Origin: Alphaproteobacteria bacterium
GTDB lineage: Bacteria > Pseudomonadota > Alphaproteobacteria > Rs-D84
Assembly: GCA_009783855.1 (NCBI GenBank)
Contig: WRCO01000002.1
Location: forward strand, 25,038-89,037
Direction of reading: 5' to 3'
DNA: 64,000 bases
Under the pieces are notes generated by a model. That model saw only the letters and a program-made list of their open reading frames with translations, was not told the origin of the DNA and did no database searches. The translations under genes were made by a program, and so were the position numbers. Of this stretch, positions 8,191-54,932 are shown one piece after another. The first letter of the stretch is position 1, and every line of letters begins with the position of its first letter.

Positions 8191-8200
8191 GGAACAGACA

Positions 8201-9133: not shown

Positions 9134-9137
9134 GGTT

Positions 9138-29966: not shown

Positions 29967-29971
29967 AACAA

Positions 29972-32708: not shown

Positions 32709-32744
32709 AATAACAGTTGTTAGCTGTTAGTTGTTAGTTTTTAA
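32709..32744. repeat. family B repeat at the 3' flank of the T4CP gene
   Basis: cagttgttagctgttagttgttagttttt. Confidence 0.65.
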
Positions 32745-36195: not shown

Positions 36196-37644
36196 ATGGA
36201 GAGAACGACAAACCAAAGCAGCGGAAATTTCATGTTACAGGCCTTGCTTGCGCTTGCGCTTGTCATCGCGTTTATGCCCATGCTTGTGCGGAAAATGGCG
36301 CGCTCGGGGTTCGATGCGGAAATGAACGCGGCCATGCAACAGGTTAATTCCGCGGTGCCGGCCGTGCGCGCGTTCGGGCGGGATAATTACGATTCGCTTC
36401 AATTCGGCGTCCAGATATACGAAGGACGGGATTTCCAAGACGCTTTGGAACCGTACGGGCTTCCCATCGGGTTTGTGCCGCGGACGCCCTTGGGACAGAA
36501 CATCGTCATGATTACAACGCGGAACGACAGCGAGACCATCGCATGGCTTCGTATTATGGGCGGGCGCGCGACCGGGATAGAAAAGGCCGAACTTGCTTTG
36601 CGCATCGGATTCTGGGCGGCGGATGTGGACGGCAACAGGCTTTCCGGCGCGACCGGCGGATGGGACAAGGATATGACGGAATTCGGATACAGGCCGGCAA
36701 GCGGCGCCATATACGTCCGCGTGCCGCTTTCGCATGAATTTTCGGACCTTCTTTCCACCACCGCGCGAAATATCGAAGCCAACCGGATGCACGTAAACCT
36801 TAACATGGGCGGCCGCGATGTGCGCGCCGCGCGCGACATAACCGCACGCGAAGGGAATTTCCGTTCGGTGCTTTCCGGCGATTTCATCCTTTCCGGGGCG
36901 GAAGACGGCCGGCGCCAAAGAAACAGATTTTCCGAACTTAACATACGCCGCGCTCATTTTCAATCAAGGGACGGTTCGAACGCGCTTAACATATCGCGCG
37001 GCACGATGAATGCCCGCTCCGTGGTTGCGCCGACCGTATCCAGATATGGCGACCCGGGTAATCTTACAAGCGAATCCGTATCCGTGCACAATTTTGCGAT
37101 GGCGGCCGGACGCACGGGGTTTATGGGCCCCACCGTATGGGAAGTGCGCGGCGATGCGATATTAAGCAATGTGACGCTTAACACCGAACGCGTGGAGGTC
37201 GGCGGATATATAAACGCCACGCGCGGCCAGGACGTGTTCGTGGATGAAGACGAGCTTACCTTTAATCAAAAATCCGGAATAGAAACCAATATCGTATCGG
37301 CGACCGCGCTTACCCTGCGCGACCAGACTTCGAACGTTCTGCTTGAAGGAGGGTCGGGACCGGTAATCATCGACATCCGGCCGGCGGGGGTTTCCGTGTT
37401 GCCCGACGTGCTTTTGGCCGGGATAAACAACGACGGCATCGCGGCGCTTGCAAGCCCGTCGGACGAATCAGACATAATGACCGCATGCAGAGGCATAATC
37501 GGCGGCCTTCCCGGAGTGAACGCAAGGTACGAGCAGAATTCGCTGGCGCAGAATATAATATGCCGGTTTGTGTTTTGGCAAAGGCTTGAACAAAGAATAG
37601 ACAAGATGCAATGCATACTTGATAGAGGGGAGGAGAATTGTTAA
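36196..37644 (+). CDS. TadG-like large pseudopilin-family protein (prepilin-type N-terminus G|NFMLQALLALALV; beta-helix-like C-terminal repeats)
   Basis: N-terminus QSSGNFMLQALLALALVIAFMPML resembles the TadE/G-like (RGNxAxxFAL) class III signal. Shares the paralog motif MHVNLNMGGRDVRAARDITA with the next two genes. Confidence 0.45.
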   Translation: MERTTNQSSGNFMLQALLALALVIAFMPMLVRKMARSGFDAEMNAAMQQVNSAVPAVRAFGRDNYDSLQFGVQIYEGRDFQDALEPYGLPIGFVPRTPLGQNIVMITTRNDSETIAWLRIMGGRATGIEKAELALRIGFWAADVDGNRLSGATGGWDKDMTEFGYRPASGAIYVRVPLSHEFSDLLSTTARNIEANRMHVNLNMGGRDVRAARDITAREGNFRSVLSGDFILSGAEDGRRQRNRFSELNIRRAHFQSRDGSNALNISRGTMNARSVVAPTVSRYGDPGNLTSESVSVHNFAMAAGRTGFMGPTVWEVRGDAILSNVTLNTERVEVGGYINATRGQDVFVDEDELTFNQKSGIETNIVSATALTLRDQTSNVLLEGGSGPVIIDIRPAGVSVLPDVLLAGINNDGIAALASPSDESDIMTACRGIIGGLPGVNARYEQNSLAQNIICRFVFWQRLEQRIDKMQCILDRGEENC

Positions 37645-38923
37645 GGCGTATATGAACCTGATAAAAATGATTTTCACCGGAACAGACAGCGCGCCCCGCC
37701 TTACGTCTTGCGGCGACGAACGCGGCGCAAGTCTTCTTGAAACGCTTCTTGCCATCGGGCTTGTCGCGGCGATGGCGCCTTTTGCGTACAACCGCGTGCT
37801 TGACGTAAGCCGCGATATAGCCGACGTCGCCGCCGCGCGGCGCATTCATAATTGGAAGGAAGCCGCCAAGGGATTTATCCGCGCAAACCAGATGGATTGG
37901 GAGGACGATGCGATTTTTGAGCTTTCCGAACGCGACCTTGTCGCGATACGGGCGCCGGACGAAGGAAAACAGGCCATCTTTCCATACGCCGCGTTTATTG
38001 AAAAATTCAGTCATGCGGGCGGCACGACCATAGAGGCGTATATTCTGTTCCCCGGCGAATTCGACGGAATCCGTATGCACCGCATCGCGCACCATCTTGG
38101 CGCGGACGCCGCCGTCGCGGGCGACGCGCAAATCGCATTTTCCGCAAGCGGCGGCTGGAGCATAGAATCGGACATATTGGAAGAAAATGATATTGTGTTC
38201 CGCGTGTCCGTAAATATGCCGATAGACGATTCATACGCGTTCATGCACCGGGTGGATACCGGCGACGAAAGGCTTAATACCATGGAGCGTGACCTGTCCA
38301 TGTCGCGCAACGACATAGTCCATGCGGGCGCGGTTAACGCAGGTCTTCTTGATTCCAAAATGGTCGGTGCATGGTTTGCGGGCGGCGGTGCATTTTCCGC
38401 GGACGAAGCCGTATTCCCCCAAGGCGCCAATGTCGACGGCGGCGGAGTATCGTTCGCGGCGGTCCGCGTTGTGGGGGATATTATCGGTTTTCGTAATATA
38501 CATGCGGGCATATTCGCGGGCGGCGGCGGGGCCTTGAACTGGTCCGCTCAGGGGAATATAATCGCCGACCGGGTGAATATAGCCGAAGCGGTTCACGTTG
38601 GAAGAAACATGACCGTAAGGTCTCCAAACGTCCGAACGGTTTCCGGATTCCTTGGCATAAGCGTGCATTCTCTGGCGACCCCGTTTGTATCCACCGAAGA
38701 ATTGCGGTTTGCGGACGGCTTTGGGCTTTCAATTTCCAACGAACTTTCGGCAAGCTTTACCGACGGGCCGTTAAGGCTTGGCAACTGGGCGTTTCCGCGG
38801 ACACCTGCGCCAAGATTTGCGGACCTTGTCCTTACACAAGGAGGCGCAGTCAAAGGCGGCGTGCCAACAGGATTTGAAAACATAATGAGCAGGAATTGGA
38901 AGGCTTTAAGGCCAAGGGAATAA
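37619..38923 (+). CDS. TadE/G-like pseudopilin-family protein 2 (G|ASLLETLLAIGLVAAMAPF, Glu at +5)
   Basis: Prepilin peptidase-type site ERG|ASLLE. Gly-rich beta-helix-like C-terminal half (GANVDGGGVSFAAVRVVGDIIGFRNIHAGIFAGGGGALNW). Start alternatives at 37652 or 37667. Confidence 0.45.
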   Translation: MIEGRRIVKAYMNLIKMIFTGTDSAPRLTSCGDERGASLLETLLAIGLVAAMAPFAYNRVLDVSRDIADVAAARRIHNWKEAAKGFIRANQMDWEDDAIFELSERDLVAIRAPDEGKQAIFPYAAFIEKFSHAGGTTIEAYILFPGEFDGIRMHRIAHHLGADAAVAGDAQIAFSASGGWSIESDILEENDIVFRVSVNMPIDDSYAFMHRVDTGDERLNTMERDLSMSRNDIVHAGAVNAGLLDSKMVGAWFAGGGAFSADEAVFPQGANVDGGGVSFAAVRVVGDIIGFRNIHAGIFAGGGGALNWSAQGNIIADRVNIAEAVHVGRNMTVRSPNVRTVSGFLGISVHSLATPFVSTEELRFADGFGLSISNELSASFTDGPLRLGNWAFPRTPAPRFADLVLTQGGAVKGGVPTGFENIMSRNWKALRPRE

Positions 38924-38929
38924 AAATAG

Positions 38930-39003
38930 AGCAAAGACAATAGAGCGCAGATAAATGTTGAGATTAAAAAGATATTTTACGGATATTAAAAAAGCATCTA
39001 TGC
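38930..39003 (+). promoter_or_regulatory. conserved 5' cassette E2 (no heptamer expansion)
   Basis: cgcagataaatgttgagattaaaaagatattttacggatattaaaaaagcatctatgct. Confidence 0.7.
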
Positions 39004-40307
39004 TTTTGCCTGTGCGAACGCGTTCTCGCAGCGAGCGCGGCGCGACGCTTGTCGAACTTCTTCTTGCGCTGGCGGTGGCGGCGGCCATGCTTCCATTTAT
39101 AATAAGACAGGCCGACGTGCGGACCCGCCGCGCGGAAAATATAAAAGCCGCCGCCGACCTTGGCAAAGTCAAATCCGCGCTTGAAAGATATATGGAAGCG
39201 AACAGGCACGAGCTTTTCTCGACCATAAGCCGGAACGTCGTGCGCGTATCGATTTCCGATTTGGAAGAACACGGGCTTGATACCGCCAATCTTGACAAGT
39301 CGGAACAGTTCCAGATGCGCGTCGTTAAAAGCGCGGACCGGGGCGGGCGGTCGTTTCTTCAGGGCGTCGTCATCATGGACACGGAAGGCATCGCGCCGAT
39401 AAGGACGCGCGAAATCGCGGCAATCGCCGGCGGCGGCGCGGGATTCGCCGACGATAACATAACATACGGCGCATTCGGAACATGGCGCGTAAGCGCGAAC
39501 GTATGGAACGCGCGGTTTACCGACAGGTCGCTTCTTGAAGTCACGGATGCCATACGGTCGGGCGAAGAATTCCTGCGCCGCATAGTGTACGAAGACGGCG
39601 GCGCGATGATGCATTCGCCGCTTGCCCTTGGCGGGCACGACATAGTCAACGCGCGGTCGGTGTTCGCGGAATCCGCGCGCTTTGCCGAATTCGTGAATTT
39701 TACGAACGCATCGGCAAGCCGCCTTGTCATGGAAGGCAAACCGACACTTGACGGCAATGTGACCATATCCGGAGAATCAACGGTTTCGGGCGTGCTGAGT
39801 TCCGATTCACGAAGCATGGAAGTCGGCCGCATGACGGTATCCGGCACTTCGCGGTTCGGCACGGTTAATGCAAACGAATTATGGGCGGGCGATTTGGAGC
39901 TTGCCGGATTTTCGGTCCAAATTGACGAGCGTCGCCCCGCCACGCTGTCGGTCGGCCGGTCGATTGACATGACCGGCGGACGCGTTGTCTCCATGCTTGT
40001 CGCGGTGGGACACGGGGGAAGCACTACGCCGCGGCTTTTCGTAAAAGACCGGGTTGAAGACGCAAGAAATCCCGAATATTTTTGGGATGTCGCGACGGGT
40101 GAAGCCATGCTTTCCGACATATTTATCCCCGCGCTTTCCAATATGGCGCGGACCGCCATAGGCCGCGAACAGCCGGGAACGGAATCTCATCGCATCCTGT
40201 CCCAGGTTGCGAACAACGCCAACGCGACGGTCGCGGATTATATGCGCGCGCTTGCCGAAATAGAACGCCGCGTCACGGCAAGGTTTGATGCGTTGAATTT
40301 GGAATAA
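38955..40307 (+). CDS. TadE/G-like pseudopilin-family protein 3 (SERG|ATLVELLLALAVAAAMLPF)
   Basis: Class III signal with Glu at +5. Beta-helix-like repeats (GNVTISGESTVSGVLSS...MTVSGTSRFGTV). The probable true start is the ATG at 39000 (MLLPVRTRSRSERG leader). Confidence 0.45.
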   Translation: MLRLKRYFTDIKKASMLLPVRTRSRSERGATLVELLLALAVAAAMLPFIIRQADVRTRRAENIKAAADLGKVKSALERYMEANRHELFSTISRNVVRVSISDLEEHGLDTANLDKSEQFQMRVVKSADRGGRSFLQGVVIMDTEGIAPIRTREIAAIAGGGAGFADDNITYGAFGTWRVSANVWNARFTDRSLLEVTDAIRSGEEFLRRIVYEDGGAMMHSPLALGGHDIVNARSVFAESARFAEFVNFTNASASRLVMEGKPTLDGNVTISGESTVSGVLSSDSRSMEVGRMTVSGTSRFGTVNANELWAGDLELAGFSVQIDERRPATLSVGRSIDMTGGRVVSMLVAVGHGGSTTPRLFVKDRVEDARNPEYFWDVATGEAMLSDIFIPALSNMARTAIGREQPGTESHRILSQVANNANATVADYMRALAEIERRVTARFDALNLE

Positions 40308-40310: not shown

Positions 40311-40426
40311 GGCGGTTGGTGGCCCGTGCCGGTGGTTCGTGGTAAAATAAAAATTTGATATTATCGCTTATTGTAATAAAATGCGAATCACGAAGGCGAG
40401 TCACCAGCCGCCAACACGGACCACCA
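40311..40426. repeat. family A palindromic repeat ending at the start codon of the zinc-ribbon protein
   Basis: ggcggttggtggcccgtgccggtggttcgtgg ... cgagtcaccagccgccaacacggaccaccaATG. Confidence 0.7.
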
Positions 40427-40924
40427 ATGAAAATAACATGCCCATTTTGCAAAATCGAATACGCGGCGAAAATCCCAAAGGGACGGCGCGCGGAATGCAT
40501 CGTGTGCGGCCATGTATGGGCGCCGGACGGCGCGCGCGGAAGGAACAGGATTCTTATGTGGCTTTTGATGGCGGCTTTCGCGCTTTTGGTGGCGGTGATT
40601 GCGATTACCATGACGACAAGGTATGCCCCGGCAAATAAGACAGAAGAAACAATCGTCGTCGAAATGACCGGCTTTCGGCGGACTGCCGCCGCGGACGGCG
40701 CGCGCATTGTCATATCCGGAAGGGTCAAGAATATGTCCGGAAGGGTTTACGGAATTCCCGACATCATGCTTGTCCTGCGGGACGATGCGGGTGAAATTGT
40801 ATTTACCCAAAGAATCATGCCGCCCGCGCCGGTTCTGGATATTGGAGAGGTTGCGAAATTTTCCCACACCCTTTCCGGCGTTCCGGAAAATGCCAGAGCG
40901 GCCCGGGCAGAGTTTGTAAGATAG
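40427..40924 (+). CDS. zinc-ribbon (MJ0042-type CxxC) + TM + DUF3426-like domain protein
   Basis: MKITCPFCKIEYAAKIPKGRRAECIVCGHVW zinc ribbon, a single TM, then a ~100 aa beta-rich domain. This architecture matches DUF3426 proteins. Confidence 0.5.
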   Translation: MKITCPFCKIEYAAKIPKGRRAECIVCGHVWAPDGARGRNRILMWLLMAAFALLVAVIAITMTTRYAPANKTEETIVVEMTGFRRTAAADGARIVISGRVKNMSGRVYGIPDIMLVLRDDAGEIVFTQRIMPPAPVLDIGEVAKFSHTLSGVPENARAARAEFVR

Positions 40925-41040
40925 CACATAGAACACAGATAATAGAACATAGATAGGAGAACGAACAAATGTTGAGATTCAAAAACAATTTTACAGGTCT
41001 TTGGAAAGCATCTGTGCTCTATGTTCTGTGCTCGATGCTC
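40925..41040 (+). promoter_or_regulatory. diverged conserved 5' cassette E3 with degenerate heptamer tract
   Basis: acagataatagaacatagataggagaacgaacaaatgttgagattcaaaaacaattttacaggtctttggaaagcatctgtgctctatgttctgtgctcgatgctc. Confidence 0.55.
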
Positions 41041-41512: not shown

Positions 41513-42478
41513 GTGAAGCGTGAGGAATTTGTTTTCATCGTTGAAGAACAGGACGCGGGTTTGCGTGTCGATAAATTTATCGCGTCCAGATTGACCGAAT
41601 ATTCTCGTTCTGAAATCCAAAAATTTCAAATAACGAAATCTGGCGCTGCAACAAAGCTTTCCGAAAAGGTAAAGCTTGGTGAAAAATATGAAGTTGCCGT
41701 TTTAATAAATATGCCTTGTGCCTTGTGTCCTATGCCTTCTTCGAAAAAAATATCCTTGGATATTTTATTCGAAGACGACGACATCATCGTTGTCAACAAG
41801 CCGCGCGGAATCGCAATGTATCCGGGCGCGGGACGCGACAGCGGAACATTGGTGCAAAGCGTTCTGGCGCATACGAATCTGTCGTCCATCGGCGCGGACG
41901 GCATGCGGCCCGGCGTTGTTCACCGCATCGACAAAGACACGTCCGGCGTTGTGATTTTTGCAAAAACGGATTCGGCGCACCGTGCGCTTGTCACGGTTTT
42001 TTCCGAACACAATCTGGTGCGGAAATATATCGCGTTTATTTGGGGCGTGCCGAACTGGCTTTCCGCGGATATTTCCGGAAACATAGGGCGGTCGACGCGC
42101 AACCGCCAAAAAATGACTATGGTCAAAACCGGCGGAAAGCCCGCGCACACAAGCGCCGAGGCTATAAACGTCTGGCCGCGCGCGAATATTTCGGAATTGC
42201 GGTGCACTTTGGACACCGGCCGCACGCATCAGATTCGCGTCCATCTTGCCGCGCATGGTTTTCCCGTTTTGTGCGACCCGCTTTACGGGCGGGGCGGGGC
42301 GCGGCTGGGCAGTGTCAAGGACCCGGAATTATTGGAATTTCTGCGTGAAAACCGCGGTCAGATGCTTCATGCCGAAGTATTGGAATTAACGCATCCGATA
42401 ACCGGCGCGCCATGCAAATTCCGCGCTAAATTGCCGGGGGACATGAGTGCGTTGAAAGAGATTCTTAACGAAAAGTGA
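41513..42478 (+). CDS. rluD: pseudouridine synthase RluD/RluC family, with an in-frame family C heptamer repeat insertion
   Basis: S4-like N-terminus. Catalytic HRIDKDTSGVVIFAKT. GTG start. Residues NMPCALCPMPSS are encoded by atgccttgtgccttgtgtcctatgcctt (41711-41740). Confidence 0.85.
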   Translation: MKREEFVFIVEEQDAGLRVDKFIASRLTEYSRSEIQKFQITKSGAATKLSEKVKLGEKYEVAVLINMPCALCPMPSSKKISLDILFEDDDIIVVNKPRGIAMYPGAGRDSGTLVQSVLAHTNLSSIGADGMRPGVVHRIDKDTSGVVIFAKTDSAHRALVTVFSEHNLVRKYIAFIWGVPNWLSADISGNIGRSTRNRQKMTMVKTGGKPAHTSAEAINVWPRANISELRCTLDTGRTHQIRVHLAAHGFPVLCDPLYGRGGARLGSVKDPELLEFLRENRGQMLHAEVLELTHPITGAPCKFRAKLPGDMSALKEILNEK

Positions 42479-42605
42479 AAAATGAAGAGTGAAAAGTTGT
42501 TGTGTCGCGACAAAGCCGCGAACGCAACCACTTTTCACCCGTCATTATTCATTTGATTGATTTCCCCCAATATGATAAAATAAGTTGAAATAAAGAGAGG
42601 ATAAT

Positions 42606-45488
42606 ATGCGCTCATATTCCAAACCATTTTTTGTCTTTGCATTTTTTGCAATCGGGCTTGTCATATCCGCCGATGCCGCGCCAAGGGTGTCAAGCGTAAG
42701 GCCGGGCGTCACTGTCCAGTCTGCAAGGTCGCGCATATCCACCGCCGGTCTGCAGATTCAGGCGCCTATACCGGTGGTGCCGGCGCTTCCCGTATTCGAC
42801 GGAACGTGCGCGAATCCCGCGCCGGAACAATTGGACGCGCTTCGCTGCACCCAACGGTATTTCGCATGTCTTCGCCGCGATATGGTATGCGGGGAGCATT
42901 TCGAACTCTGCGACACTATCGCCCGGTTTAATCAACGGCGCATGTTTTGCCAGGATGAGCTTGCGCGTTGTCCCGCGACCGTCATCGCCGAACTTTTCGG
43001 CAATCCGATAACACAGACGGTCGACGCGGAAAACATGGCGATGTGCGACGGCCAATGGACGGTGGTCCGCCGCGATTTCACGCCCGGCCTTCACGATATT
43101 CAATTGGCGTTTAACGCAAGCCTTGGGCCCAATCAGCTTTCCGGAATCGGCCGCGAAATATGGGCCGGCGCCGAATGGGCGGCCGCCAATACTTTGAGGG
43201 TTTGCGAATCCGTCGCGAACGCATGCCTTACCCGCGCGTGCCGGAATGAACCGCACAAGTGTTTGGGACGGCAATTCCTGTTGCCACAGGTCGCGGATAT
43301 CGCGGGCCTGGCCAGCGATGAAACGGAAAGAACCCACGCCGGAATCGCGACCGAGCGCGCCCGGTTTGTGGTGCCGCCGACATTGGTGCGGAATTATGCC
43401 GAAAACATGCTTTGGGAAGATGCGAACGTGATGCAGTATCTTCGCGCGGAATGCGGGTCTGAAATCGGAACGAACGAACATTGTTTCCGCCTTGCCAATC
43501 CTAATTCAAGATTTGGGTCATCGGACCAGTTTGAGGCAAACCTTGCATTTGATACGGTAATGACGGGTGAAATAAACCGCCGCGCATGGGTACAGGCGCG
43601 AAGCATAGAATGGCTTGCCGCCGCGGTCGCCGAAGTGGTGACGTCGTGCGAATTGGCGATTGAAGATTGCGTAAAGAATACATGCGGGTTCGGTTCGATG
43701 GCTTCGTGTTACGGCCGCGCGCGCAACCGGGACGGGTTGGTCAACCTTGCCGCAGGCACGGTAAACGATGAAATCGCAAGAATATGCAGACCGCAGATTG
43801 CCGAGAATCAGCATTGCCGCGACCTTCGCCCCGCGGGCGAAAGCGCGACCGCGGTATGGACGCATTTCTGGGGCGCGGGGGCGGAATCGACGCGCCTTTC
43901 CGCACGCCTTTCGTCGCAATTGCAGAACGCGTTTTCTGAAACGGGCAAGGCGAATATGCGCCGCGCGTGCCAGACCGCCGCAACCGCGTGCGTGCGTCAG
44001 GAATGCGGAAACGATTTCACAAGATGCCTTGTCCGCGGCGCGGACGACGACACGGGCCGCCGGGAATTCAACAACGACGGCCGGCCGATAATTGCCGGAG
44101 CCCAGGCGGGCGGATTTTCGCAAGACATGGCGCGCGGGCTTTGCATGCTTACCGTAAAGGAAATACGGGCGTGCAACGATTGGTTCGATATACAGTTTGC
44201 GGAAAGCGCGATGACCGAAAGCGGTCAATGGGGCGCGCTTGATTCATGGACCGCGGGCCGCGATGCGCGGAACGCATGGGGGGGCGATAACAGAACCCAT
44301 GTATGCGTGCTTGAACGCATGCCGATGATAGAAGCGGAAGTGCAAGCAATCGGCGATATGAGGATGTTCAGAAACCTTGGCGTTGCAGCGCGGCGGGCCG
44401 ATGTTTCCGAAAACGACTTTGGATGCGCGATGCAGGGGCGCCGGATATTCGACGAACTTATCGCGGACATCGCGGCCGAGGCACAGCAAAGACTGATAGT
44501 CGCCGCGAACGAAGCAAAGAACCAATGCCTTGACAGAAACCGCGTGCGCGGGTTACAGGATAATTTCGTATGGGCGAATGTAAGCGACCTTCGCGACAGA
44601 TTCAACCCGGTACAGGGAATCCTTGTCCAGGATATAAGGCCGACGGCGGATATTTGGGATGGATTCTGTGCGGTGCGGATTACGATGAATTCGGACGATA
44701 CGATATTGAACAATCATTTGAGCGGCGTCATGGCGTCAAGGAATGTAAGATACTTTTCGGTGGGCGATGCCGCAGTCTGCGGAAGCTGGATGTCGCAAAG
44801 CGACCTTGAAAGTCTTGAAGACGCGGTGCGTGCCGCAAACCCGCAAAGCAGGGTGCAAAAGGGTACGTCCGGTCGATGGATGGGCGCGATTACGGGCATA
44901 CTTGGCGGCGGTGCCGGCGGTATAGCGGTTGGCAATATGATAGGTAATGCGGGGGCTAGAGACAACTGTACCACCAGAGGAGGCACATCTGCTTGTAATA
45001 TGTGTGGTCATCAAATAAGAGGTACTGATGCGGGTGACGTGGATGACAGAGTTTGGTATACATGCGATATTTCCATAATTGGAAACGAAGTTGTGGTGAG
45101 TAATCGCGAAACTTCACGGGAACCACCAGTGTCCGAAGGGGGCGGCGGACGTATTGGCGATACCTTTATAGCCAGCACCTTACGCGGTTGCAATGACGCG
45201 GTAGATAATCTTTTGAATCAGTGCAACGCAGGCAACCGCAACAGGACGATGCAGCTTGGGCGACATGGAATAACGGGTGGCCTTGTTGGCGCGGCGGGTC
45301 TTGGCGCCGTCGGACTTATCGCCGGAAACCAGATAGACGTGGCAAGACAAAGAACGGCCCAAGAAGAAGAACGCCTTAAACAAGATGCCGCCGTTGCCGA
45401 ATGGTTCAATACAATCGGTTCAAGAATCAATTGCTTCATCGACGGCAGACAGGTCGGAAGATTCGGAGATCCGATAGAGATAAGGTAA
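42606..45488 (+). CDS. large secreted Cys-repeat protein (960 aa) with C-terminal glycine-zipper segment
   Basis: Signal peptide FVFAFFAIGLVISADA. About 45 Cys in recurring AxxCxxxxCxxxxxxC units. C-terminal GITGGLVGAAGLGAVGLIAG. A terminator follows. Confidence 0.45.
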   Translation: MRSYSKPFFVFAFFAIGLVISADAAPRVSSVRPGVTVQSARSRISTAGLQIQAPIPVVPALPVFDGTCANPAPEQLDALRCTQRYFACLRRDMVCGEHFELCDTIARFNQRRMFCQDELARCPATVIAELFGNPITQTVDAENMAMCDGQWTVVRRDFTPGLHDIQLAFNASLGPNQLSGIGREIWAGAEWAAANTLRVCESVANACLTRACRNEPHKCLGRQFLLPQVADIAGLASDETERTHAGIATERARFVVPPTLVRNYAENMLWEDANVMQYLRAECGSEIGTNEHCFRLANPNSRFGSSDQFEANLAFDTVMTGEINRRAWVQARSIEWLAAAVAEVVTSCELAIEDCVKNTCGFGSMASCYGRARNRDGLVNLAAGTVNDEIARICRPQIAENQHCRDLRPAGESATAVWTHFWGAGAESTRLSARLSSQLQNAFSETGKANMRRACQTAATACVRQECGNDFTRCLVRGADDDTGRREFNNDGRPIIAGAQAGGFSQDMARGLCMLTVKEIRACNDWFDIQFAESAMTESGQWGALDSWTAGRDARNAWGGDNRTHVCVLERMPMIEAEVQAIGDMRMFRNLGVAARRADVSENDFGCAMQGRRIFDELIADIAAEAQQRLIVAANEAKNQCLDRNRVRGLQDNFVWANVSDLRDRFNPVQGILVQDIRPTADIWDGFCAVRITMNSDDTILNNHLSGVMASRNVRYFSVGDAAVCGSWMSQSDLESLEDAVRAANPQSRVQKGTSGRWMGAITGILGGGAGGIAVGNMIGNAGARDNCTTRGGTSACNMCGHQIRGTDAGDVDDRVWYTCDISIIGNEVVVSNRETSREPPVSEGGGGRIGDTFIASTLRGCNDAVDNLLNQCNAGNRNRTMQLGRHGITGGLVGAAGLGAVGLIAGNQIDVARQRTAQEEERLKQDAAVAEWFNTIGSRINCFIDGRQVGRFGDPIEIR

Positions 45489-45491
45489 ACA

Positions 45492-45521
45492 AAAACACCC
45501 GGCGAAAACCGGGTGTTTTTT
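45492..45521 (+). terminator. rho-independent terminator (aaacacccggcgaaaaccgggtgtttttt)
   Basis: 9-bp stem plus a T-run. Confidence 0.7.
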
Positions 45522-48040: not shown

Positions 48041-49366
48041 TCACTTCTGAAGGCCCGCGTATGTTTTTTTGACGCCGCTCCAAAGGCCTTTGCCCTGCTC
48101 CTTTGCCTTGTTATAATATTCTTCGGGCACCTTTATACCCTTGAACAGGTTGTTTATTATCGCCGGAATCGACGTCATGAAAAATCCGATAAACAAACCC
48201 GCCATGATTATTGTAACCAGGCTTGTATTCTGAAGCGTAAGACCGTCCATAAGATACCGCGAATCATTGTTCTCCAACGCCGTTTGCAGCAAATCCGAAC
48301 CCTGGAACTCTCCGAACATCGCATTCAAAAACATCACCGCAAACACGACAAGGACGGCGACCGCAACAATGCCAACCGTATTCTTGACAAGGTCGTCTAT
48401 CATACCCTTAATCTTTTCGCCTTTGGCGCCCGGCATGACTTTCCAATCGCTGAACACCCAGCCCAAAAGAAACAGCGGAAGCATTATCAAATCCAACGAA
48501 ATCCGCATAATCGTTTCAAGAAAATACATCGGAATCGGAAGCAGCGCCATAAAAAACAAAAATATGATTATCGCACCCGCCGCAATAAGACCCATGTTCG
48601 GAAATATCGGTATATCCCACAAAAATGTGTGCATATAACGCACATCGAACGCAGAATTAAGCAGTGTCCAGCCGACAGTCATGCCAAGCCCCGTCATCTT
48701 GTGAATCCCGCCCAATTGACAGGTCAGATTATGCCGAAGCCTTGGCGAAAATATCCCGTCCGGCGAACCTGTGCTGCCTTCGGCGATTGCGGTTGCGATG
48801 ATGCAGGCTTCGAACGCATGCCTGTTTCCTTCGTCGGCAAACCTGTCCGCCGCGCCGCGGCCAAGCGACAGGCCGGTGTTGAATACAGGCTCTATCAGCG
48901 CGCCGCCGATAATCTTTGGAAGCGGCGCCAAAAGCAGCGCGCTGACAAATATAAGCTTTACAAGCAGAATACCGAATTTCTCGGCAAGCGTCCACGCGCC
49001 GCCTTCTTTTTTCATATCAACCTCGGCGCCTTTTGCGCCTATCCAGCTTGAAATGACGGTCCATGCGACCCAAACCGCCGCAAGCCCAAGCGATATCGGA
49101 ATCACGGCAAGCCCGACAGCCCTGTATATCCTTGGCACAAAGTCGGAAAGCGACGCGACAACGCCGCCGAACATGCCGCATGTCCAACAGCTTGAAAAGA
49201 ATGTAAGCGCGCCCGACATATCAACCGGCGCAAAAGACCTGTATATCGAAAATCCGATGATGCCGCCCCCAGCGGCGATGCCGCCGATGGCAAGCATCGA
49301 AATCGCCGACGCCGATAACGGAAACAGCGCAAGAAATGCGGGAAAAAGTTTTTTTAATTTATCCAC
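48041..49366 (-). CDS. polytopic membrane protein, paralog P1 of a 5-gene family (signal peptide; CWTCGMF motif)
   Basis: 441 aa, at least 8 TM. SSCWTCGMFGG. C-terminal tail KKTYAGLQK is shared with P2 and P5. Divergent from P2. Confidence 0.4.
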   Translation of the reverse strand: MDKLKKLFPAFLALFPLSASAISMLAIGGIAAGGGIIGFSIYRSFAPVDMSGALTFFSSCWTCGMFGGVVASLSDFVPRIYRAVGLAVIPISLGLAAVWVAWTVISSWIGAKGAEVDMKKEGGAWTLAEKFGILLVKLIFVSALLLAPLPKIIGGALIEPVFNTGLSLGRGAADRFADEGNRHAFEACIIATAIAEGSTGSPDGIFSPRLRHNLTCQLGGIHKMTGLGMTVGWTLLNSAFDVRYMHTFLWDIPIFPNMGLIAAGAIIIFLFFMALLPIPMYFLETIMRISLDLIMLPLFLLGWVFSDWKVMPGAKGEKIKGMIDDLVKNTVGIVAVAVLVVFAVMFLNAMFGEFQGSDLLQTALENNDSRYLMDGLTLQNTSLVTIIMAGLFIGFFMTSIPAIINNLFKGIKVPEEYYNKAKEQGKGLWSGVKKTYAGLQK

Positions 49367-49413
49367 AAATCCCCCGGAATTTGCTTTGCATTATACCATA
49401 AATCTTTCCTATA

Positions 49414-50718
49414 ATGGCGAAGATTATGAGAGGGTTCTTTCTTTTTGCCGGCTTGCTTTTGCTGCCGCTGCCTCTGGCGGCCGCAGGAATCGTCGACGCG
49501 CTTTCGCTTGCGGGGTTTGTCCCGCTTGTCCTTGACGCGATGATGACCGTCGCCATGACCGGATACGAATTTTTTGTCGGCGACGGATTCGGCATCATAT
49601 ATATTCTTGTCTGGGGCTGGCTTGGCATTACTGTCGGTCTTTATCTTGTCCGGATGTATCTTCCTTCGAAATGGCTTGGCATGTTCGGCGTTCAGGGCGA
49701 CGACAGGCTTGCCAAAGGCGAGCTTTCCGGAATGCAAATCGGCGAAGATTTGTTAAAGCCCGGCATACGCGCAATCTTCGCGGTCTTGGTTCTTTTGCAA
49801 GTCCGGCCGCAGTATATAACAACCTTTATCGTGGACCCGTTCCTTCGTTTCGGCGCGATATACACCGACAGCATTTATCGCGAAGTTTCCCAAGGAAACA
49901 CAATGTTCGGCGCGCCCCCGGTCGTAAAGTGTCCGGAAGGGTTGCTTATGAACATAGAAAGGACAAGAGGATATATTTCCGAAGCCGGGTGCAACTTTCT
50001 TATCCAGCCGGTCGCGCAGATAACGCACGCCAACAACTTTATCATAAAGCGCGGATTCCGGATGTTGACCAGCGGCATCGGGGGGCTTATGACGCTTATC
50101 CCGCGCGGCGGGGAAAATTTCATGAATATCATAACGGGATTCCTGTTGATTACCACGTTCGTATCAAGCAACTTTTTCATGGCGCTTCTTGTCATCCAGG
50201 GGATATTCACGTTCGGAATGACGCTTGTGCTTTATCCTTTCAAAGTGCTTAAATACGTCGCAAAGCCGGCGGACGGCAAGGCGTGGTTCGACCCGTGGGA
50301 CGCTTTTTCCGATATTATCCCCGCGCTTCGCAATCTTGTCATCACCATGATTGCGTCCATGTTCATTATGCTTATCAATATCGCCATAGTGCGCGCGCTG
50401 TTCAATTGGAACGAAAGCATGTTCGTCGAAGTGGCGGGCGGAACCGCGACCGCCAACGTGCCGACGGCGGCGGCACAGGGCGCCATGGGATTCGGTCATC
50501 ATTCCGTGACGTGGCTTTCCGCGATATTGACGTTCTATCTTATGCTTCGCATTTTTCAGATGACGCGCGAAAAGCTTGCCGAATATACGTCCGGAACGCC
50601 GTCGACGCTGTATGACAAAGCGAAATCCGACGCGCAATCGTTCGTGGGCGGAACAAAAAAATATTCGGCCGGAACGTGGGATGCGTTCAAATGGGTGAAA
50701 AACAAGGTTGGTAAATAA
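49414..50718 (+). CDS. polytopic membrane protein, paralog P2
   Basis: 434 aa. Signal-like N-terminus. C-terminus GGTKKYSAGTWDAFKW. First gene of a translationally coupled P2-P5 operon. Confidence 0.4.
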   Translation: MAKIMRGFFLFAGLLLLPLPLAAAGIVDALSLAGFVPLVLDAMMTVAMTGYEFFVGDGFGIIYILVWGWLGITVGLYLVRMYLPSKWLGMFGVQGDDRLAKGELSGMQIGEDLLKPGIRAIFAVLVLLQVRPQYITTFIVDPFLRFGAIYTDSIYREVSQGNTMFGAPPVVKCPEGLLMNIERTRGYISEAGCNFLIQPVAQITHANNFIIKRGFRMLTSGIGGLMTLIPRGGENFMNIITGFLLITTFVSSNFFMALLVIQGIFTFGMTLVLYPFKVLKYVAKPADGKAWFDPWDAFSDIIPALRNLVITMIASMFIMLINIAIVRALFNWNESMFVEVAGGTATANVPTAAAQGAMGFGHHSVTWLSAILTFYLMLRIFQMTREKLAEYTSGTPSTLYDKAKSDAQSFVGGTKKYSAGTWDAFKWVKNKVGK

Positions 50719-50720
50719 TA

Positions 50721-51920
50721 ATGATGTGGCTTGAACCTCTTGTCGACCGTACGGCGCAGTGTTGGGGATGCGGCGTGTTTGACATGCTGTTTTCGGTCGT
50801 GTCGGTCGCCGCCGCCGGCATGTACGGCGCCATGACGACGATTGCCGTCGCGTTGCTTGCCGTGTTTATCGCGTTCTATGTCCTTTGGTCGGTGTGGCAG
50901 AACCTGTACGGCGATGCGAAAGAGCCCATATATAAAAAATATTTTCACCCGGTGCTTGTAAATTCATTAATCGTGCTTGCGCTGTTGTCTTTGGGCGTGG
51001 TGTTCCCGCGCATGATAACAACGATGACCATAGAGCCCATAGCGCGGGTGACGCTTGTCTATTCCGAAAGCATGCTTAACAAAACAACACAACAGGTCGA
51101 TTTACAGGTCCCATATACGCCAAAGGAAATGCCGGAAGACGGGTTTTACCGGCCGGAGCTTCGCGATACCATAATCAGCCTTGTCAAAACTTCCACCACA
51201 CAATTCCAGGCGATGATGACCATGGGGCTTCTTGTCGTCGACCGGTCGTTTTCATGGTCGGCCCTTAACGGAATCGGCGCGATGGTGAAACATTTCGTCA
51301 TGCTTATCATGGGGCTTACGATTGTTTGGAATTTTTTCAAGCTGTTCGTAAAATTCTGTCTGTATTTTGTCGACGTCATCATCAACCTTTCTTTGTTCGC
51401 GTTCTTCTTTCCCCTGGGCCTTGTGTTCTTTGTGCTCAAGAATTCCGAAAGCGAAGGCTGGGTGAAAAAAATCGGGGAAAACATCGCGCCCGGAATGCTT
51501 AACAAGCTTATCGGGTCCATTGTCACGCTTGCGACGGTTGTCATCACGTACACCGTCATCCTTGTGCTTATGGCGCGGTTCTTTTCGGGTGATTCCGAAG
51601 GCGGCGCGGAGCTTGCGCGCGCGATAATGTCCAACGACCCGACCAACGATTTGTTTTCGGGTGCGATTGCCGAAGACAACCTTGCCGCGATGACTCTTGG
51701 GGGCATCGTCGTGCTTGTGTTCGTCATCCGGTTCCTTGCCGGTCAGATAGACGAAGTTGCAAAGATGATTACGCAATCGTTCAACATAGAGGTTCAAAAA
51801 CCCGAAGTCGGGGAAAAGTTGGGCGAAAGCGTGCTTGCGGTCGGCGAAAAAACCAAAGGGTTCGCGTGGGAGGAAGCAAAGCTTGGGCTTGGCATAGGAG
51901 AGGATAAAAACAAAACATAA
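50721..51920 (+). CDS. polytopic membrane protein, paralog P3 (QCWGCGVFD motif)
   Basis: 399 aa. Start 3 nt after the P2 stop. Confidence 0.4.
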   Translation: MMWLEPLVDRTAQCWGCGVFDMLFSVVSVAAAGMYGAMTTIAVALLAVFIAFYVLWSVWQNLYGDAKEPIYKKYFHPVLVNSLIVLALLSLGVVFPRMITTMTIEPIARVTLVYSESMLNKTTQQVDLQVPYTPKEMPEDGFYRPELRDTIISLVKTSTTQFQAMMTMGLLVVDRSFSWSALNGIGAMVKHFVMLIMGLTIVWNFFKLFVKFCLYFVDVIINLSLFAFFFPLGLVFFVLKNSESEGWVKKIGENIAPGMLNKLIGSIVTLATVVITYTVILVLMARFFSGDSEGGAELARAIMSNDPTNDLFSGAIAEDNLAAMTLGGIVVLVFVIRFLAGQIDEVAKMITQSFNIEVQKPEVGEKLGESVLAVGEKTKGFAWEEAKLGLGIGEDKNKT

Positions 51921-53434
51921 TGTGGAAAGCGGCGCTTATCTTTACCGCCATAAGGCTGATTATCGGAATCGCGGTTATCGGCGTCGCTGTTTCGTATATG
52001 TCGCGGTCCATAGACGGCGTGGTTGTGTCGTACGTAAGCCTTGATTCGTTTCTTCGCGCCATCGGTGCGTGCGACGCGTATGGCAATTGCGACATCGCGT
52101 ATACAAGCGGGTGTTTCCTTTGCAAATATGTCGAACAATTGTTCTTTATAATCGGTGACGCGGCGTATGCCTTTTGGGATGCGTTAATCGGGAATATATG
52201 GATTCTGATGTCGGTTGGGTTTGTGATATTCCTGTTCCATCACAGTTATAAACACATAAGGGATGCGAACGCCGCGGCCGCGACACAGCATGCCCAGGAA
52301 AAGAAATTTGATTTCAAGGCGTGGTTCGACCCGGTTTGGAAATTGGGCGTGCGGGTGTTTGTTGTCGGCGCGCTTCTTGGCGTTGTGGGATACGGCGGCG
52401 CGCCGGTGGTAAAAACGGTCGCCGATGTAACAATAACGCCCGTGATGTTTATAGGGTCAAGCCTTGCCACCGTGGCAACGGGGATAAGCGATACCGCGGC
52501 GTGCGGAAGCGGCCGCGGCATAGAACGGGAAGGCACCGACATACTTGGGCCGGCGCTTCAACCGTTTATGTGCGTGATTGGGAATCTGAATGCGGTCGTG
52601 CTTGCCGGGGCGGCGGGCGGGTTTGCGCTTATGAATTACACCGCGCTTGGGATTGGAGGCGGGCTTTGGACATGGGTCGCGGGGCTTGGCATTGTCATTA
52701 TGTTCATGTTCATCGGGTTCAATATATTCTTCAAGATATTAAGCGTCGTGTTCCAATTGGTGTTTTTAATCATATTCCTTCCCCTGTTTATGGCGGCGTG
52801 GGCGTATGAAAAGGAATGGACGCTTATGGCGGGCTCTGTGTCCAACGCAATCGGAATGCTTGCCAAATGCGCGGTCCGGATTATTGCGATAACGCTTCAG
52901 ATTTTAATCTTTTACGGCATGGTGCAGTTTGTCGCAATCGAATTCTTTCCGGGGACGGATGAATCGCGGGCGGCGGGATATACCGTGCTGTTGCCGGCTG
53001 GAATACTTGATAACCAAGGCATGGGAGCCCAGGGACCGACAGACAGGCAAACGGCGTCGGTTATGGAAGTATTTTCAAGATGCGAAGCGGTCGGCACCGC
53101 GGACGGAGTAATGAATAAAAACGCGTTCCGCGATTGTTTCAGGGCGGAAAGGGCCAAAGTGGAGGCAATATATCCCGGAGCGTTCGATTTCATGAGGCAA
53201 GGCTGGTCGTTCCTTTGGATGATGATAGGATTGATATTCGTTTATTTCTTTGCCGTGATGAAAAAGGTTGAAGATATGCTGCTTGGCGGGAAAGACAATA
53301 CCGGCGATGATTTATTCGGGTCCGGCGGCGGAACTCCGTTTGAATACGGAAGCCATGTCCGGCAATTCGGTATGAGCATATGGGGCGTGCAAAAGGGAAT
53401 AGTTAACAAGATAGAGGGAATATTCAAACCTTGA
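51920..53434 (+). CDS. polytopic membrane protein, paralog P4 (GCFLCKYV motif)
   Basis: 504 aa. TAATG overlap with P3. Confidence 0.4.
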   Translation: MWKAALIFTAIRLIIGIAVIGVAVSYMSRSIDGVVVSYVSLDSFLRAIGACDAYGNCDIAYTSGCFLCKYVEQLFFIIGDAAYAFWDALIGNIWILMSVGFVIFLFHHSYKHIRDANAAAATQHAQEKKFDFKAWFDPVWKLGVRVFVVGALLGVVGYGGAPVVKTVADVTITPVMFIGSSLATVATGISDTAACGSGRGIEREGTDILGPALQPFMCVIGNLNAVVLAGAAGGFALMNYTALGIGGGLWTWVAGLGIVIMFMFIGFNIFFKILSVVFQLVFLIIFLPLFMAAWAYEKEWTLMAGSVSNAIGMLAKCAVRIIAITLQILIFYGMVQFVAIEFFPGTDESRAAGYTVLLPAGILDNQGMGAQGPTDRQTASVMEVFSRCEAVGTADGVMNKNAFRDCFRAERAKVEAIYPGAFDFMRQGWSFLWMMIGLIFVYFFAVMKKVEDMLLGGKDNTGDDLFGSGGGTPFEYGSHVRQFGMSIWGVQKGIVNKIEGIFKP

Positions 53435-53439
53435 TAGAA

Positions 53440-53530
53440 CATGGATGGAGCACAGATAAGTGTCGAGATTAAAAAGATATTTTACGGATATTAAAAAAGC
53501 ATCTATGCTCTGTGCTCTGTGCTCTGTGCT
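53440..53530 (+). promoter_or_regulatory. conserved 5' cassette E4 plus (CTGTGCT)x4 heptamer tract
   Basis: cacagataagtgtcgagattaaaaagatattttacggatattaaaaaagcatctatgctctgtgctctgtgctctgtgctc. Confidence 0.7.
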
Positions 53531-54932
53531 CTTTTGCGGCTTTGCCGCAGATGCCGCGCCGGTAAGCAATATTCCGGGCGCCATTGCCGAATACGGCCAT
53601 TGGAATACAGATGAAACCCTTCGCCCCATGGTCGACGGAATCCGCAGTGATATAGCCGCGTTCGAAGCCGGGTTCGCAGAACAAGTATTTACCCAAGGTG
53701 ACCAGTTCGTGCCGCCCGAGGCGAAAATCGGACTTGCCATGATTAACGCGTTCACGATGGTCGCGCAATCAATCGACCGGACGCTTGGAAGTTTTGTCAT
53801 CGCGCTTCTTGTCGTTCTGTTCGCGTTCTGGGTGATGATGGAAACGTACCAGGTTATGAAGACCGGCGGCAATATAAGAGAACTTGCAATGAAAATCGTG
53901 CGCAAGGGTTTGTGGATTGCCGTATGGATTATCATACTGGCGTTCGGGCCCGCGCGATTATTCATGATGGTCGCAAGCCCGGTTATACAGGCGGGTATAA
54001 TCATGTCCGACCTTATACTTGATACCATGACCGAAGTCGCGGGCCTGCATCTTCTTGACACATGCGGCGCGATAAGGGGGTATGTCGCGGAAAGGCATAC
54101 GGGCGCCGGGCTTTTCAATGCGGAAGCCACGGCAGATATGCTTTGCATCCCGACAAGGCTTTCCGGATTCTTTTACACGTGCGTCGCGGCGGGATGGAAA
54201 TGGGTGGCGGCGGGCGCCGGAAATGTCTGGGCGGCGGGAACAACCGCGGTGGCGGGCGGGGTCGGCGGCGCCCTTCTTGGCGGCGGAGTGGCCGGGACGC
54301 TTGCCGGAGCCGGCGTCGGCGCCCTGACCGGCGGCGCGATAAGCGGCGGCAACATGCTTACATTCATCATGGGCCTTATATTTATCGCCATATTCGCGCG
54401 CAATATCTGGCTTTTCGCAATCGAAGCGCTTGGTGTTGTGGCAAGTCTTTTCCTTGCCGTCATGTTCTTGCCGTTCACCGCCGTCGCGGAATGTTTCGGG
54501 GGCGGCGAGACAAGCCTTAAAGACCGGGGGATATTCACGGAATTCTTCAAAATGCTTGCCAATATGGTCGGCGGCGGAAAATTGAAATTCCGCGGCCAGC
54601 TTCAGACATTCATAAACGCCGCGATTTATTTTGTGGCCTTGTCCGTTGTGTCTGCCATCGGGCTTGCCCTTCTTGCACAGGTCATCGGACCAAGTCCCGC
54701 GGATTTTGCGGACTCCGTCCCGACGGCGGAAAACAGCACAAGTTTCATGATGGTGCTTGTCGTCGGAATGCTTGTGTCGCATCTTGCCAAAAAGGCGGGC
54801 GATATTGCAAAAGACCTTGGCGGGTCCATAGATGCCGAATTTGGGAAACGGCTTGACGCACAGGCGCAATCTTTACGCGGCTGGGCGGTAGGCAGCGCAA
54901 AGAAATGGTACGGGGTGTTTAAGGGGAAATGA
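53460..54932 (+). CDS. polytopic membrane protein, paralog P5 (cassette-type leader; Gly-rich GxxxG segment)
   Basis: 490 aa. Signal MLCALCSVLFCGFAADA. AGTTAVAGGVGGALLGGGVAGTLAGAGVGALTGG. C-terminus AKKWYGVFKGK. Confidence 0.4.
   Translation: MSRLKRYFTDIKKASMLCALCSVLFCGFAADAAPVSNIPGAIAEYGHWNTDETLRPMVDGIRSDIAAFEAGFAEQVFTQGDQFVPPEAKIGLAMINAFTMVAQSIDRTLGSFVIALLVVLFAFWVMMETYQVMKTGGNIRELAMKIVRKGLWIAVWIIILAFGPARLFMMVASPVIQAGIIMSDLILDTMTEVAGLHLLDTCGAIRGYVAERHTGAGLFNAEATADMLCIPTRLSGFFYTCVAAGWKWVAAGAGNVWAAGTTAVAGGVGGALLGGGVAGTLAGAGVGALTGGAISGGNMLTFIMGLIFIAIFARNIWLFAIEALGVVASLFLAVMFLPFTAVAECFGGGETSLKDRGIFTEFFKMLANMVGGGKLKFRGQLQTFINAAIYFVALSVVSAIGLALLAQVIGPSPADFADSVPTAENSTSFMMVLVVGMLVSHLAKKAGDIAKDLGGSIDAEFGKRLDAQAQSLRGWAVGSAKKWYGVFKGK

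Follow-up and report, generated by a model that had tools for sequence, protein, structure and literature searches.

A cysteine-rich, predicted exported protein family of gut Alphaproteobacteria: a candidate envelope scaffold braced by disulfides and bearing a glycine-zipper stalk

Why should bacteria with genomes of roughly 900 genes keep, in 232 species, a protein of about 1000 residues that has so far gone unnamed? Such a protein is expensive, and for that reason probably important. We took up the question with a stretch of 64,000 nucleotides from an Alphaproteobacteria bacterium of the Rs-D84 lineage (GenBank assembly GCA_009783855.1, contig WRCO01000002.1, positions 25,038 to 89,037 of the forward strand), which is referred to below as the window and in which all positions are counted from its first letter. 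One of its open reading frames (ORFs) encodes the 960-residue, cysteine-rich protein studied here (the target), which an earlier reading, made from the letters of the window and called here the sequence-only reading, had taken for a disulfide-rich, secreted or surface protein. Judged by its sequence and its modelled structure, the target is the founding member of an undescribed, lineage-restricted family, new at both the family and the fold level by comparison with Pfam, NCBIfam, and the PDB. Its function we put forward as an informed hypothesis, namely that the protein is probably an extracytoplasmic envelope scaffold, braced by disulfides, on which a glycine-zipper stalk displays a variable tip.

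Is the ORF a gene at all? In one alternative it is not a real gene, or else its cysteines serve as metal or iron–sulfur (Fe-S) ligands; the only points in favor of that alternative are the regular spacing of the cysteines and the absence of annotation, and we regard it as effectively excluded. The signals found at the locus are as follows:

42606..45488, + strand: the whole ORF, 960 codons and a TAA stop, encoding 38 Cys; full-length homologues exist
42553..42581, + strand: a promoter-like TTGATT-17-TAAAAT with an extended TG (consensus match only), within the 127-nt gap 3′ of rluD
42595..42601, + strand: a Shine–Dalgarno sequence, GAGAGGA, 4 nt 5′ of the ATG, read from the sequence
45491..45520, no strand assigned: a bidirectional intrinsic-terminator hairpin with a 13-bp stem and a T-run, between the convergent target and GIY-YIG genes

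The position, strand, and length given earlier for the ORF were exact, and the strong terminator noted at that time is the hairpin listed above, which begins 3 nt past the target stop and is common to the target and the convergent GIY-YIG gene. It had also been considered that the ORF might be an artefact of high guanine-plus-cytosine (GC) content, such as frameshifts. However, the target has a GC content of 56% and a third-position GC content (GC3) of 0.60, codon and GC statistics that are similar in the adjoining genes, and it has full-length, colinear homologues in 232 species-level genomes, with 25 cysteines invariant. Together, these observations rule out a spurious or frameshifted ORF, and the presence of a Shine–Dalgarno sequence, a promoter-like site, and a terminator likewise speaks against one. 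On this evidence, the target gene is real and intact, and its product is a protein of 960 residues with predicted export.

How widely is this protein distributed? A word-indexed search returned five relatives only. An exhaustive profile search returned 245 cluster representatives at E ≤ 1e-3, 107 of them at E ≤ 1e-30, and a scan in which each GTDB species was represented by a single genome placed relatives in 232 genomes, so that the orthologs which the sequence-only reading had suggested looking for are plentiful. All 232 carriers are metagenome-assembled genomes (MAGs) of gut Alphaproteobacteria, the genus-named ones being Candidatus Enterousia; they include bins labelled UBA, RUG, RGIG, and UMGS, bins from termites, and a small number whose labels are plainly wrong, and one of them is a circular chromosome of 958,618 bp. 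Family members are typically 930–1200 residues long with 35–48 Cys, and they share a common leader, an N-terminal motif, and the C-terminal signature G-x-K-I-x-C-Y-x-G-x-x-x-V-G-x-Y-G-D. Every one of the 20 family clusters that were looked up was unnamed or a “hypothetical protein.” The window protein itself is 100% identical to a partial protein from a termite-gut MAG (FWE17). No paralogue of the target was found in the window; the genome LBH81 carries two divergent members. According to a published account, GTDB places Enterousia in the order Rs-D84, whose genomes are smaller than 1 Mb and encode neither respiration nor most biosynthesis nor standard transporters; these bacteria, which occur widely in the guts of termites, ruminants, birds, and humans, are probably obligate symbionts or parasites of other cells (PMC12306168).

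Does the protein belong to any described family? None of its domains had been recognized at the outset, and this held after deeper searches. Pfam-A and NCBIfam returned no family at E ≤ 10 for the whole target protein; the best value for nine other family members was E 0.006, far short of the cut-offs, and that for six isolated sub-segments, including both glycine zippers, was E 0.086. A family profile run against all PDB sequences gave a best E of 0.007, which we judged to be noise (an engineered binder, matched by the coiled/glycine-rich C-terminal part only). An AlphaFold2 model was built on a 53-sequence alignment, an earlier 5-sequence alignment having reached a predicted local distance difference test (pLDDT) score of only 54. 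The 53-sequence model has a mean pLDDT of 73.7 and a predicted template modelling (pTM) score of 0.60, with most of residues 70–745 above 90 and residues 920–960 at 67–93, and a Foldseek search with it found no match in the PDB at E ≤ 1e-3. The remote-homology and structure-prediction checks that had been proposed thus yielded a mostly helical, confident core model and no characterized family, and the target offers a confidently modelled fold without PDB relatives.

The anatomy of the protein, on which the rest of the argument depends, is as follows:

42606..42677, + strand: predicted Sec-type signal peptide, aa 1–24, MRSYSKPFFVFAFFAIGLVISADA/AP (...VISADA/AP), from hydropathy; the hydrophobic leader is conserved in the family
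42678..42803, + strand: conserved, disordered N-terminal motif and linker, aa 25–66 (pLDDT <50)
42804..43010, + strand: N-terminal Cys module, aa 67–135, with Cys 68, 81, 88, 95, 102, 115, and 122 arranged along helices as a C-x6-C ladder
43011..43139, + strand: small beta region with Cys147, aa 136–178, from the structure model
43140..43571, + strand: helical Cys repeat R1, aa 179–322, C200-x6-C207-x4-C212-x6-C219 ... C283-x9-C293 (pLDDT about 90–95)
43572..43889, + strand: helical Cys repeat R2, aa 323–428, C348, C355, C360, C368 ... C394-x9-C404
43890..44225, + strand: helical Cys repeat R3, aa 429–540, C455, C462, C467, C474 ... C513-x9-C523
44226..44402, + strand: variable linker with Cys567, aa 541–599, from the model and conservation
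44403..44846, + strand: alpha/beta domain, aa 600–747, with Cys607, 641, 688, and 725 (pLDDT about 85–93)
44877..44948, + strand: glycine zipper 1, aa 758–781, GAITGILGGGAGGIAVGNMIG, five consecutive in-register GxxxG, its position kept across the family
44949..45263, + strand: hypervariable insert, aa 782–886, with 6 Cys including a CxxC (797–800), 0 Lys, and 10 Arg
45264..45326, + strand: glycine zipper 2, aa 887–907, HGITGGLVGAAGLGAVGLIAG, from hydropathy and the family alignment
45327..45485, + strand: C-terminal clasp, a helix (910–936) and a three-strand beta unit (941–958), INCFIDGRQVGRFGDPIEIR, with the invariant Cys943 (pLDDT 80–93)

The Sec-like N-terminus agrees with the signal peptide proposed earlier. 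Behind it, residues 25–66 follow the family consensus T-A-R-P-S-V ... S-R-M-P-T and then a Thr/Ser-rich stretch (VRPGV...SRIST in the window version), the two Arg of the motif being present in 51/53 and 52/53 sequences and the Pro in 49/53. When a TARPSV-type motif was sought on other window proteins, only spurious-frame matches appeared, and the motif therefore seems to be family-specific rather than a shared sorting signal. The N-terminal module of 7–8 Cys holds the best-conserved motif of the protein, VCGEHFELC, and has the highest mean pairwise identity of all regions (0.44). The helical part that follows is composed of three copies of a unit of ~105–145 aa, each with C-x6-C-x4-C-x6/7-C and then C-x9-C. 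Homology between the copies was detected by BLASTP self-comparison (R1/R3, E 7e-6; R2/R3, E 1e-3) and by hhalign comparison of family sub-profiles (R1–R3, 84% probability; R2–R3, 88%), so the search for internal repeats that had been advised did find them. The three Cys motifs that the sequence-only reading had quoted are indeed present (205–221, 460–476, and 353–370), but the repeat had been defined too narrowly, as the true unit is larger.

A C-terminal glycine zipper had also been seen, and GITGGLVGAAGLGAVGLIAG does occur at residues 888–907; however, it is not the only one, and a better zipper, (GxxxG)x5, lies at 758–781. What had been called a charged tail behind it is instead a conserved helix and beta-hairpin carrying the invariant Cys943. 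The actual count of cysteines is 38 (4.0% of residues), not the about 45 first given, as against 0–1.8% in the recognized housekeeping and envelope genes of the window; two small neighbors, orf174 (4.6%) and a ZitP-like gene (2.6%), both described below, are Cys-rich as well.

Are these cysteines paired? Among 53 homologues whose identity to the window protein is 19–44%, 25 Cys never vary, and another six occur in ≥90% of the sequences. In 71 of the 73 full-length members, the number of mature cysteines (those beyond residue 35) is even, and it takes the values 36, 38, 40, and so on to 48, which suggests that cysteines have been gained and lost in pairs. Particular partners can also be followed: C147 and C607 occur together in 18/20 sequences, and in the Enterousia clade an extra 5-Cys N-terminal module and one extra Cys in a distant linker come together in 33/35 sequences. 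When the protein is divided at the zippers, the parity is the same in 52/53 sequences, with an odd number of cysteines in the ectodomain before zipper 1 (31–39), an even number in the insert (2–8), and an odd number in the tail (1, rarely 3); for the insert on its own, the count is even (2, 4, 6, or 8) in 53/53. It follows from this odd/even/odd pattern that Cys943 must bond to the ectodomain, so that the tail would return to the core and lie in the same compartment, with the insert self-contained. The high confidence with which the tail was modelled agrees with its return to the core.

These patterns argue that the cysteines of the target are paired in about 19 disulfides, long-range ones among them. 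With a predicted export signal and conserved, apparently paired cysteines, the protein would fall within the general class of disulfide-bonded exported proteins, and the description “disulfide-rich” is well supported by the pairwise gain and loss, the parity, and the co-occurrence of cysteines. The case is also a clean demonstration, from sequence only, of how disulfide topology can be derived from Cys parity. As for the cysteines being metal or Fe-S ligands, we rejected that possibility, given that the leader is Sec-type without a twin-arginine motif, that there are only 11 His, that neither CxxCH nor ferredoxin-type CxxCxxC motifs occur, and that the Cys number changes pairwise between 36 and 48.

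In which compartment do the segments lie? In the genome of the window, the ratio of Lys to Lys plus Arg has a median of 0.16 in exported and outer-membrane proteins (0.09 in LptD) and of 0.48 in cytoplasmic proteins, while it is 0.07 in the target and 0/10 in the insert; moreover, the target is Lys-poor in every segment. With 0 Lys and 10 Arg, the insert has the Lys-poor composition of this genome's exported and outer-membrane proteins and is thus unlikely to be cytoplasmic, and composition argues that all segments of the target are extracytoplasmic. The original assignment of the protein as secreted or surface-located is accordingly supported, in the sense of extracytoplasmic, by the predicted signal peptide, the paired Cys, and the Lys-poor, Arg-rich composition. 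Lys-poor, Arg-rich exported and outer-membrane proteins are found window-wide (LptD at 14571–16640, − strand; the pilin-like ORFs at 36196–40307, + strand; and the target), and the cytoplasmic proteins used for comparison, PNPase (5515–7683, + strand) and IF2 (19758–22133, + strand), are not Lys-depleted. The organism of the closest homologue (P0002) is equally Lys-depleted; Enterousia homologues contain 5–8% Lys. One possible reason for the Lys depletion is that exposed proteins have adapted to an alkaline compartment of the termite gut.

What, then, are the two zippers? Both are stretches of 20–24 residues consisting of Gly, Ala, Ile, Leu, and Val only, and both keep fixed positions in the family at 19–44% identity. 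The insert between them is the least conserved part of the protein, with a pairwise identity of 0.12 and a length of 71–283 aa, compared with identities of 0.31–0.44 for the Cys-bearing core domains. One explanation, which we consider unlikely, is that the zippers are the transmembrane (TM) helices of an inner-membrane hairpin, with the Cys-rich part and the C-terminal tail in the periplasm and the insert forming a cytoplasmic zinc-binding loop. Both segments are of TM length and hydrophobic (Kyte–Doolittle [KD] means of 1.4–1.7), Arg flank the insert side of each, the insert contains a CxxC, and the odd/even/odd parity would be predicted equally well. However, the apparent free energy of membrane insertion (ΔGapp), calculated with a position-independent Hessa-type scale, is +4.3 and +2.7 kcal/mol for the zippers (family medians, +4.5 and +3.9), as against −1 to −4.8 for the inner-membrane helices in the window (MraY, FtsW, LptF/G, and the TM helix of the ZitP-like protein), although the scale is not decisive and gives +3.3 for the N-terminal helix of the second pilin-like gene. 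In addition, 7/53 members have no segment that reaches a KD value of 1.3. Taken together, these two results argue that the zippers are not ordinary inner-membrane helices. The insert also fits such a hairpin poorly, with a Lys-to-Arg balance that is the signature of exported proteins rather than the cytoplasmic value of about 0.48, and with a Cys number (2, 4, 6, or 8) and a length (71–283 aa) that vary too freely for a fixed zinc site.

An about equally doubtful explanation is that the protein is wholly soluble, in the periplasm or secreted, and that the zippers are flexible linkers or a packing interface without membrane contact. The zippers are only weakly hydrophobic, they match no Pfam glycine-zipper family, and their region is low in model confidence, all of which would be expected of such a protein. 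A simple linker, however, is as a rule polar and does not retain a hydrophobic character, whereas the Gly/Ala/Ile/Leu/Val-only stretches of the target, with five in-register GxxxG, hold their position at 19–44% identity.

The reading that we favor, and hold to be probable, is the disulfide-braced scaffold with a glycine-zipper stalk. The target would be exported by Sec, and a mostly helical core, comprising the N-terminal Cys module, the three repeats, and the alpha/beta domain, would then stand outside the cytoplasm, the 38 Cys of the protein being joined in about 19 disulfides. From the core, the chain would exit via zipper 1, form the hypervariable and separately disulfide-bonded tip, and come back via zipper 2, after which the clasp of helix and beta-hairpin would lock it onto the core through the disulfide of the invariant Cys943. 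The two GxxxG segments would thereby make up an antiparallel stalk that keeps the variable tip away from the conserved, covalently braced scaffold. We suppose that the stalk lies in or across the outer membrane, or is packed in an oligomer, with the tip exposed, and that, in a bacterium dependent on partners, the protein may act as a scaffold of the envelope or of cell contact, perhaps in concert with the giant pilin-like proteins encoded upstream. We treat “adhesin-like,” the further suggestion of the sequence-only reading, as a conjecture.

What does the neighborhood of the gene add? Upstream of the target, the window contains the following genes:

36196–37644, 37619–38923, and 38955–40307, + strand: three large type-IV-pilin-like genes, 434–482 aa, with class-III signal motifs
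40355..40924, + strand: a bitopic protein with a zinc ribbon, a TM segment, and DUF3426, of ZitP-like architecture, with one strong TM helix
40969..41493, + strand: orf174, a small exported protein with no known domain, conserved in 64 loci with the ZitP-like gene on one side and rluD on the other
41513..42478, + strand: a pseudouridine synthase of the rluD type, the immediate 5′ neighbor of the target

The sequence-only reading had placed the target downstream of a Tad-like cluster and rluD. The gene directly upstream is indeed rluD, but the label “Tad-like” was too strong, and we replace it with pilin-like genes (three of them, with a ZitP-like gene) without nearby machinery: a Pfam search of 30 window ORFs found no component of Tad, type IV pilus (T4P), or type II secretion system (T2SS) machinery (CpaF/TadA, TadB/C, ATPase, platform, secretin, or prepilin peptidase). 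The three upstream ORFs have the sequence marks of type IV pilin-like proteins, that is, a class III signal with Gly at −1, Glu at +5, and a hydrophobic helix of ~20 aa. The motifs in the window are G/NFMLQ, with Gln at +5 in this first gene, and G/ASLLE and G/ATLVE, with Glu at +5; across about 60 loci, the N-termini read G/NFLLQALLAL, RG/ASxLEVLLA, and RG/xMLVELLLS. Matches to the N-termini of ComGE/GspG are weak, and the Pfam N_methyl threshold is not reached; one homologue was named PilV tip adhesin by the Prokaryotic Genome Annotation Pipeline (PGAP). The giant pilin-like block, which carries no annotation, is kept in about 60/84 Alphaproteobacteria MAG loci and appears to be a system in its own right.

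The ZitP-like gene matches Zn_ribbon_4 (E 0.0023) and DUF3426 (E 0.0037), both below the Pfam cut-offs; ZitP of Caulobacter is described as a polar factor required for pilus biogenesis (PMC5182063). The product of orf174 opens with a Cys-rich segment, APTCPPCVC. A copy of rluD lies directly 5′ of the target homologue in 63/80 species loci, and the order of three pilin-like genes, ZitP-like gene, rluD, and target is whole in 57/80, with target identity of only 23–27% and variable downstream genes. The target and the neighboring giant pilin-like genes are a concrete candidate for envelope machinery that serves a partner-dependent lifestyle.

If the lifestyle depends on partners, the zippers might act on the partner directly. 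In this third alternative, which we rate as very improbable, the target is a contact-dependent factor, either released or shown on the cell surface, whose zipper hairpin inserts into the partner membrane (compare the GxxxG region of VacA) as a channel or anchor with which to draw on the partner. It would accord with the tandem GxxxG motifs, and with a published account in which the lineage lacks standard transporters and biosynthesis and is suggested to live at the expense of partner cells (PMC12306168). The C-terminal region also gave profile matches to the alpha-pore-forming toxins XaxA/YaxA, but at E 0.11–0.16 these are not significant, and we set the similarity aside as a weak lead only. 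On the other side, the PDB matches are not significant, there is no toxin- or immunity-like neighbor and no known toxin domain, the conserved chromosomal context is housekeeping-like, without a paralogue in the window (though LBH81 has its two members), and the clasp disulfide would keep the ends of the hairpin on the scaffold. Ranked by our confidence, the alternatives thus run from the inner-membrane hairpin, through the soluble protein and the membrane-inserting factor, to the metal-binding or artefactual ORF.

An extension of the scaffold reading, quite unlikely in our estimation, is that the target forms the core of an unknown envelope device in gut Alphaproteobacteria that depend obligately on partners. 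The scaffold would drive the zipper hairpin across the outer membrane, or else into the membrane of a partner cell, the fast-evolving tip would recognize the partner, and the three pilin-like proteins and the ZitP-like polar factor would complete a contact or uptake apparatus of a new kind.

Several observations weigh against the favored scaffold and stalk. The zipper–insert region (748–914) was modelled at pLDDT <50, and the stalk rests on sequence logic only; alpha-helical outer-membrane anchors, furthermore, are rare. The parity counts come from related sequences and are not independent trials, although the pattern persists through repeated changes in Cys number. Genes for DsbA, DsbB, VKOR, or thioredoxin-fold proteins with CxxC were not found in the sampled loci, a sample that is too small to be informative. 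The lineage is reported to be without respiratory chains (PMC12306168), and this raises the question of how an anaerobe so described oxidizes about 19 disulfides in one protein. Finally, the link to the pilin-like block is not obligatory, as one clade has the target after ftsQ-ftsA, and the genome FWG80 has both but apart, with the pilin block ending at rluD and the target homologue elsewhere; nor was a Walker A motif of a T2SS/T4P/VirB11 pilus-assembly ATPase found in the 1.56 Mb of the window and the loci. The observations of the sequence-only reading were confirmed in part, and its interpretation was supported in part.

Some further features of these loci were recorded. In the clade with the target after ftsQ-ftsA (L003/L008, L009, L012, and L014, about 7350–9900), ftsA is unusually long (about 590 aa), and the long ftsA of L003 carries an extra Ribul_P_3_epim Pfam match. 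In the window, a gene for a VirD4/TraG-type coupling protein (32734–34980, − strand) adjoins rsmE and precedes the pilin-like block by 1.2 kb and the target by 8 kb; the same VirD4/TraG-rsmE neighborhood occurs in L004, and no other type IV secretion system genes were recognized in the window. A five-gene cluster at 48041–54932 (one gene on the − strand, four on the + strand) encodes proteins of 399–504 aa whose N-termini are hydrophobic and for which neither Pfam nor NCBIfam gave a match, and its gene order recurs in at least five further loci (L001, L016, L025, L054, and partly L068). In addition, a repeat of ~78 nt is present four times (29964–30041, 38927–39004, 40941–41018, and 53445–53522), with 91% identity for three of the copies and 77% for the fourth. 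It holds the inverted repeat AGAGCATAG…CTATGCTCT, and the copies lie at the 5′ ends of genes for exported proteins (BamB-like, the third pilin-like gene, orf174, and ORF 53460), where they give the four ORFs one apparent N-terminal peptide, M(L/S)(R/K)LKRYFTDIKKASML. In all probability the element is a short repeat of intergenic or regulatory type, and translation of these ORFs may in fact begin beyond it, farther downstream.

Which known systems does the target resemble? The Hcp/Sel1-like proteins of Helicobacter are secreted, are composed of alpha-helical repeats each stapled by a disulfide, and come from host-associated bacteria. The disulfide-stapled helical repeats of the target are similar, but its units are 105–145 aa long, compared with ~36 aa for Sel1, and Pfam found no Sel1 (PF08238) or TPR match in the whole protein or in its sub-segments. 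The target is also somewhat like the small disulfide-stapled helical folds of twin-Cx9C CHCH domains (e.g., COA6) and saposin-like proteins. Its zippers share with the SlyB/Pcp/Rickettsia 17-kDa “glycine zipper 2TM” lipoproteins and with VacA the paired, tandem, in-register GxxxG in Gly/Ala/Ile/Leu/Val-only stretches, and GxxxG motifs reportedly drive helix–helix packing in membranes. In contrast to the 2TM proteins, however, the target is not a lipoprotein, as it has no lipobox, and its zippers are 71–283 aa apart rather than joined by a tight turn; the isolated zipper segments have no Pfam match to Glycine zipper 2TM, Gly-zipper_Omp, or YMGG.

By its size and location, the target recalls PilY1/PilC, which is similarly a signal-peptide protein of ~1000 aa just downstream of pilin-like genes in the same orientation. 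The target differs in being helical and in having neither the PilC beta-propeller (PF05567) nor a vWA domain; moreover, three genes, rluD among them, separate it from the pilin-like genes, some lineages no longer keep the linkage, and no pilus machinery was found nearby. F-type TraN, with 22 conserved Cys, and chlamydial OmcB are, like the target, large exported proteins with many conserved cysteines whose disulfides stabilize envelope structure, and OmcB does so in an obligate symbiont. However, they are beta-rich or unrelated in sequence; the target has no Pfam match to TraN (PF06986) or Chlam_OMP6 and no fold match, and its neighbors are chromosomal housekeeping genes rather than a tra operon, although the VirD4 coupling-protein gene 8 kb upstream is a point of likeness. 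By the feature that defines each of them, the target belongs to none of these families.

The proposed stalk has its counterpart in the “antenna” that VirB10/TraF forms in the core complexes of type IV secretion, where an alpha-helical hairpin rises out of a periplasmic domain and crosses the outer membrane. VirB10 differs from the target in that its N-terminus is anchored in the inner membrane and in that it contains a beta-barrel domain, and there is no similarity in sequence or fold, so that the analogy is a mechanistic one only. To our knowledge, no well-known structure other than this antenna sets a precedent for the stalk geometry that we propose.

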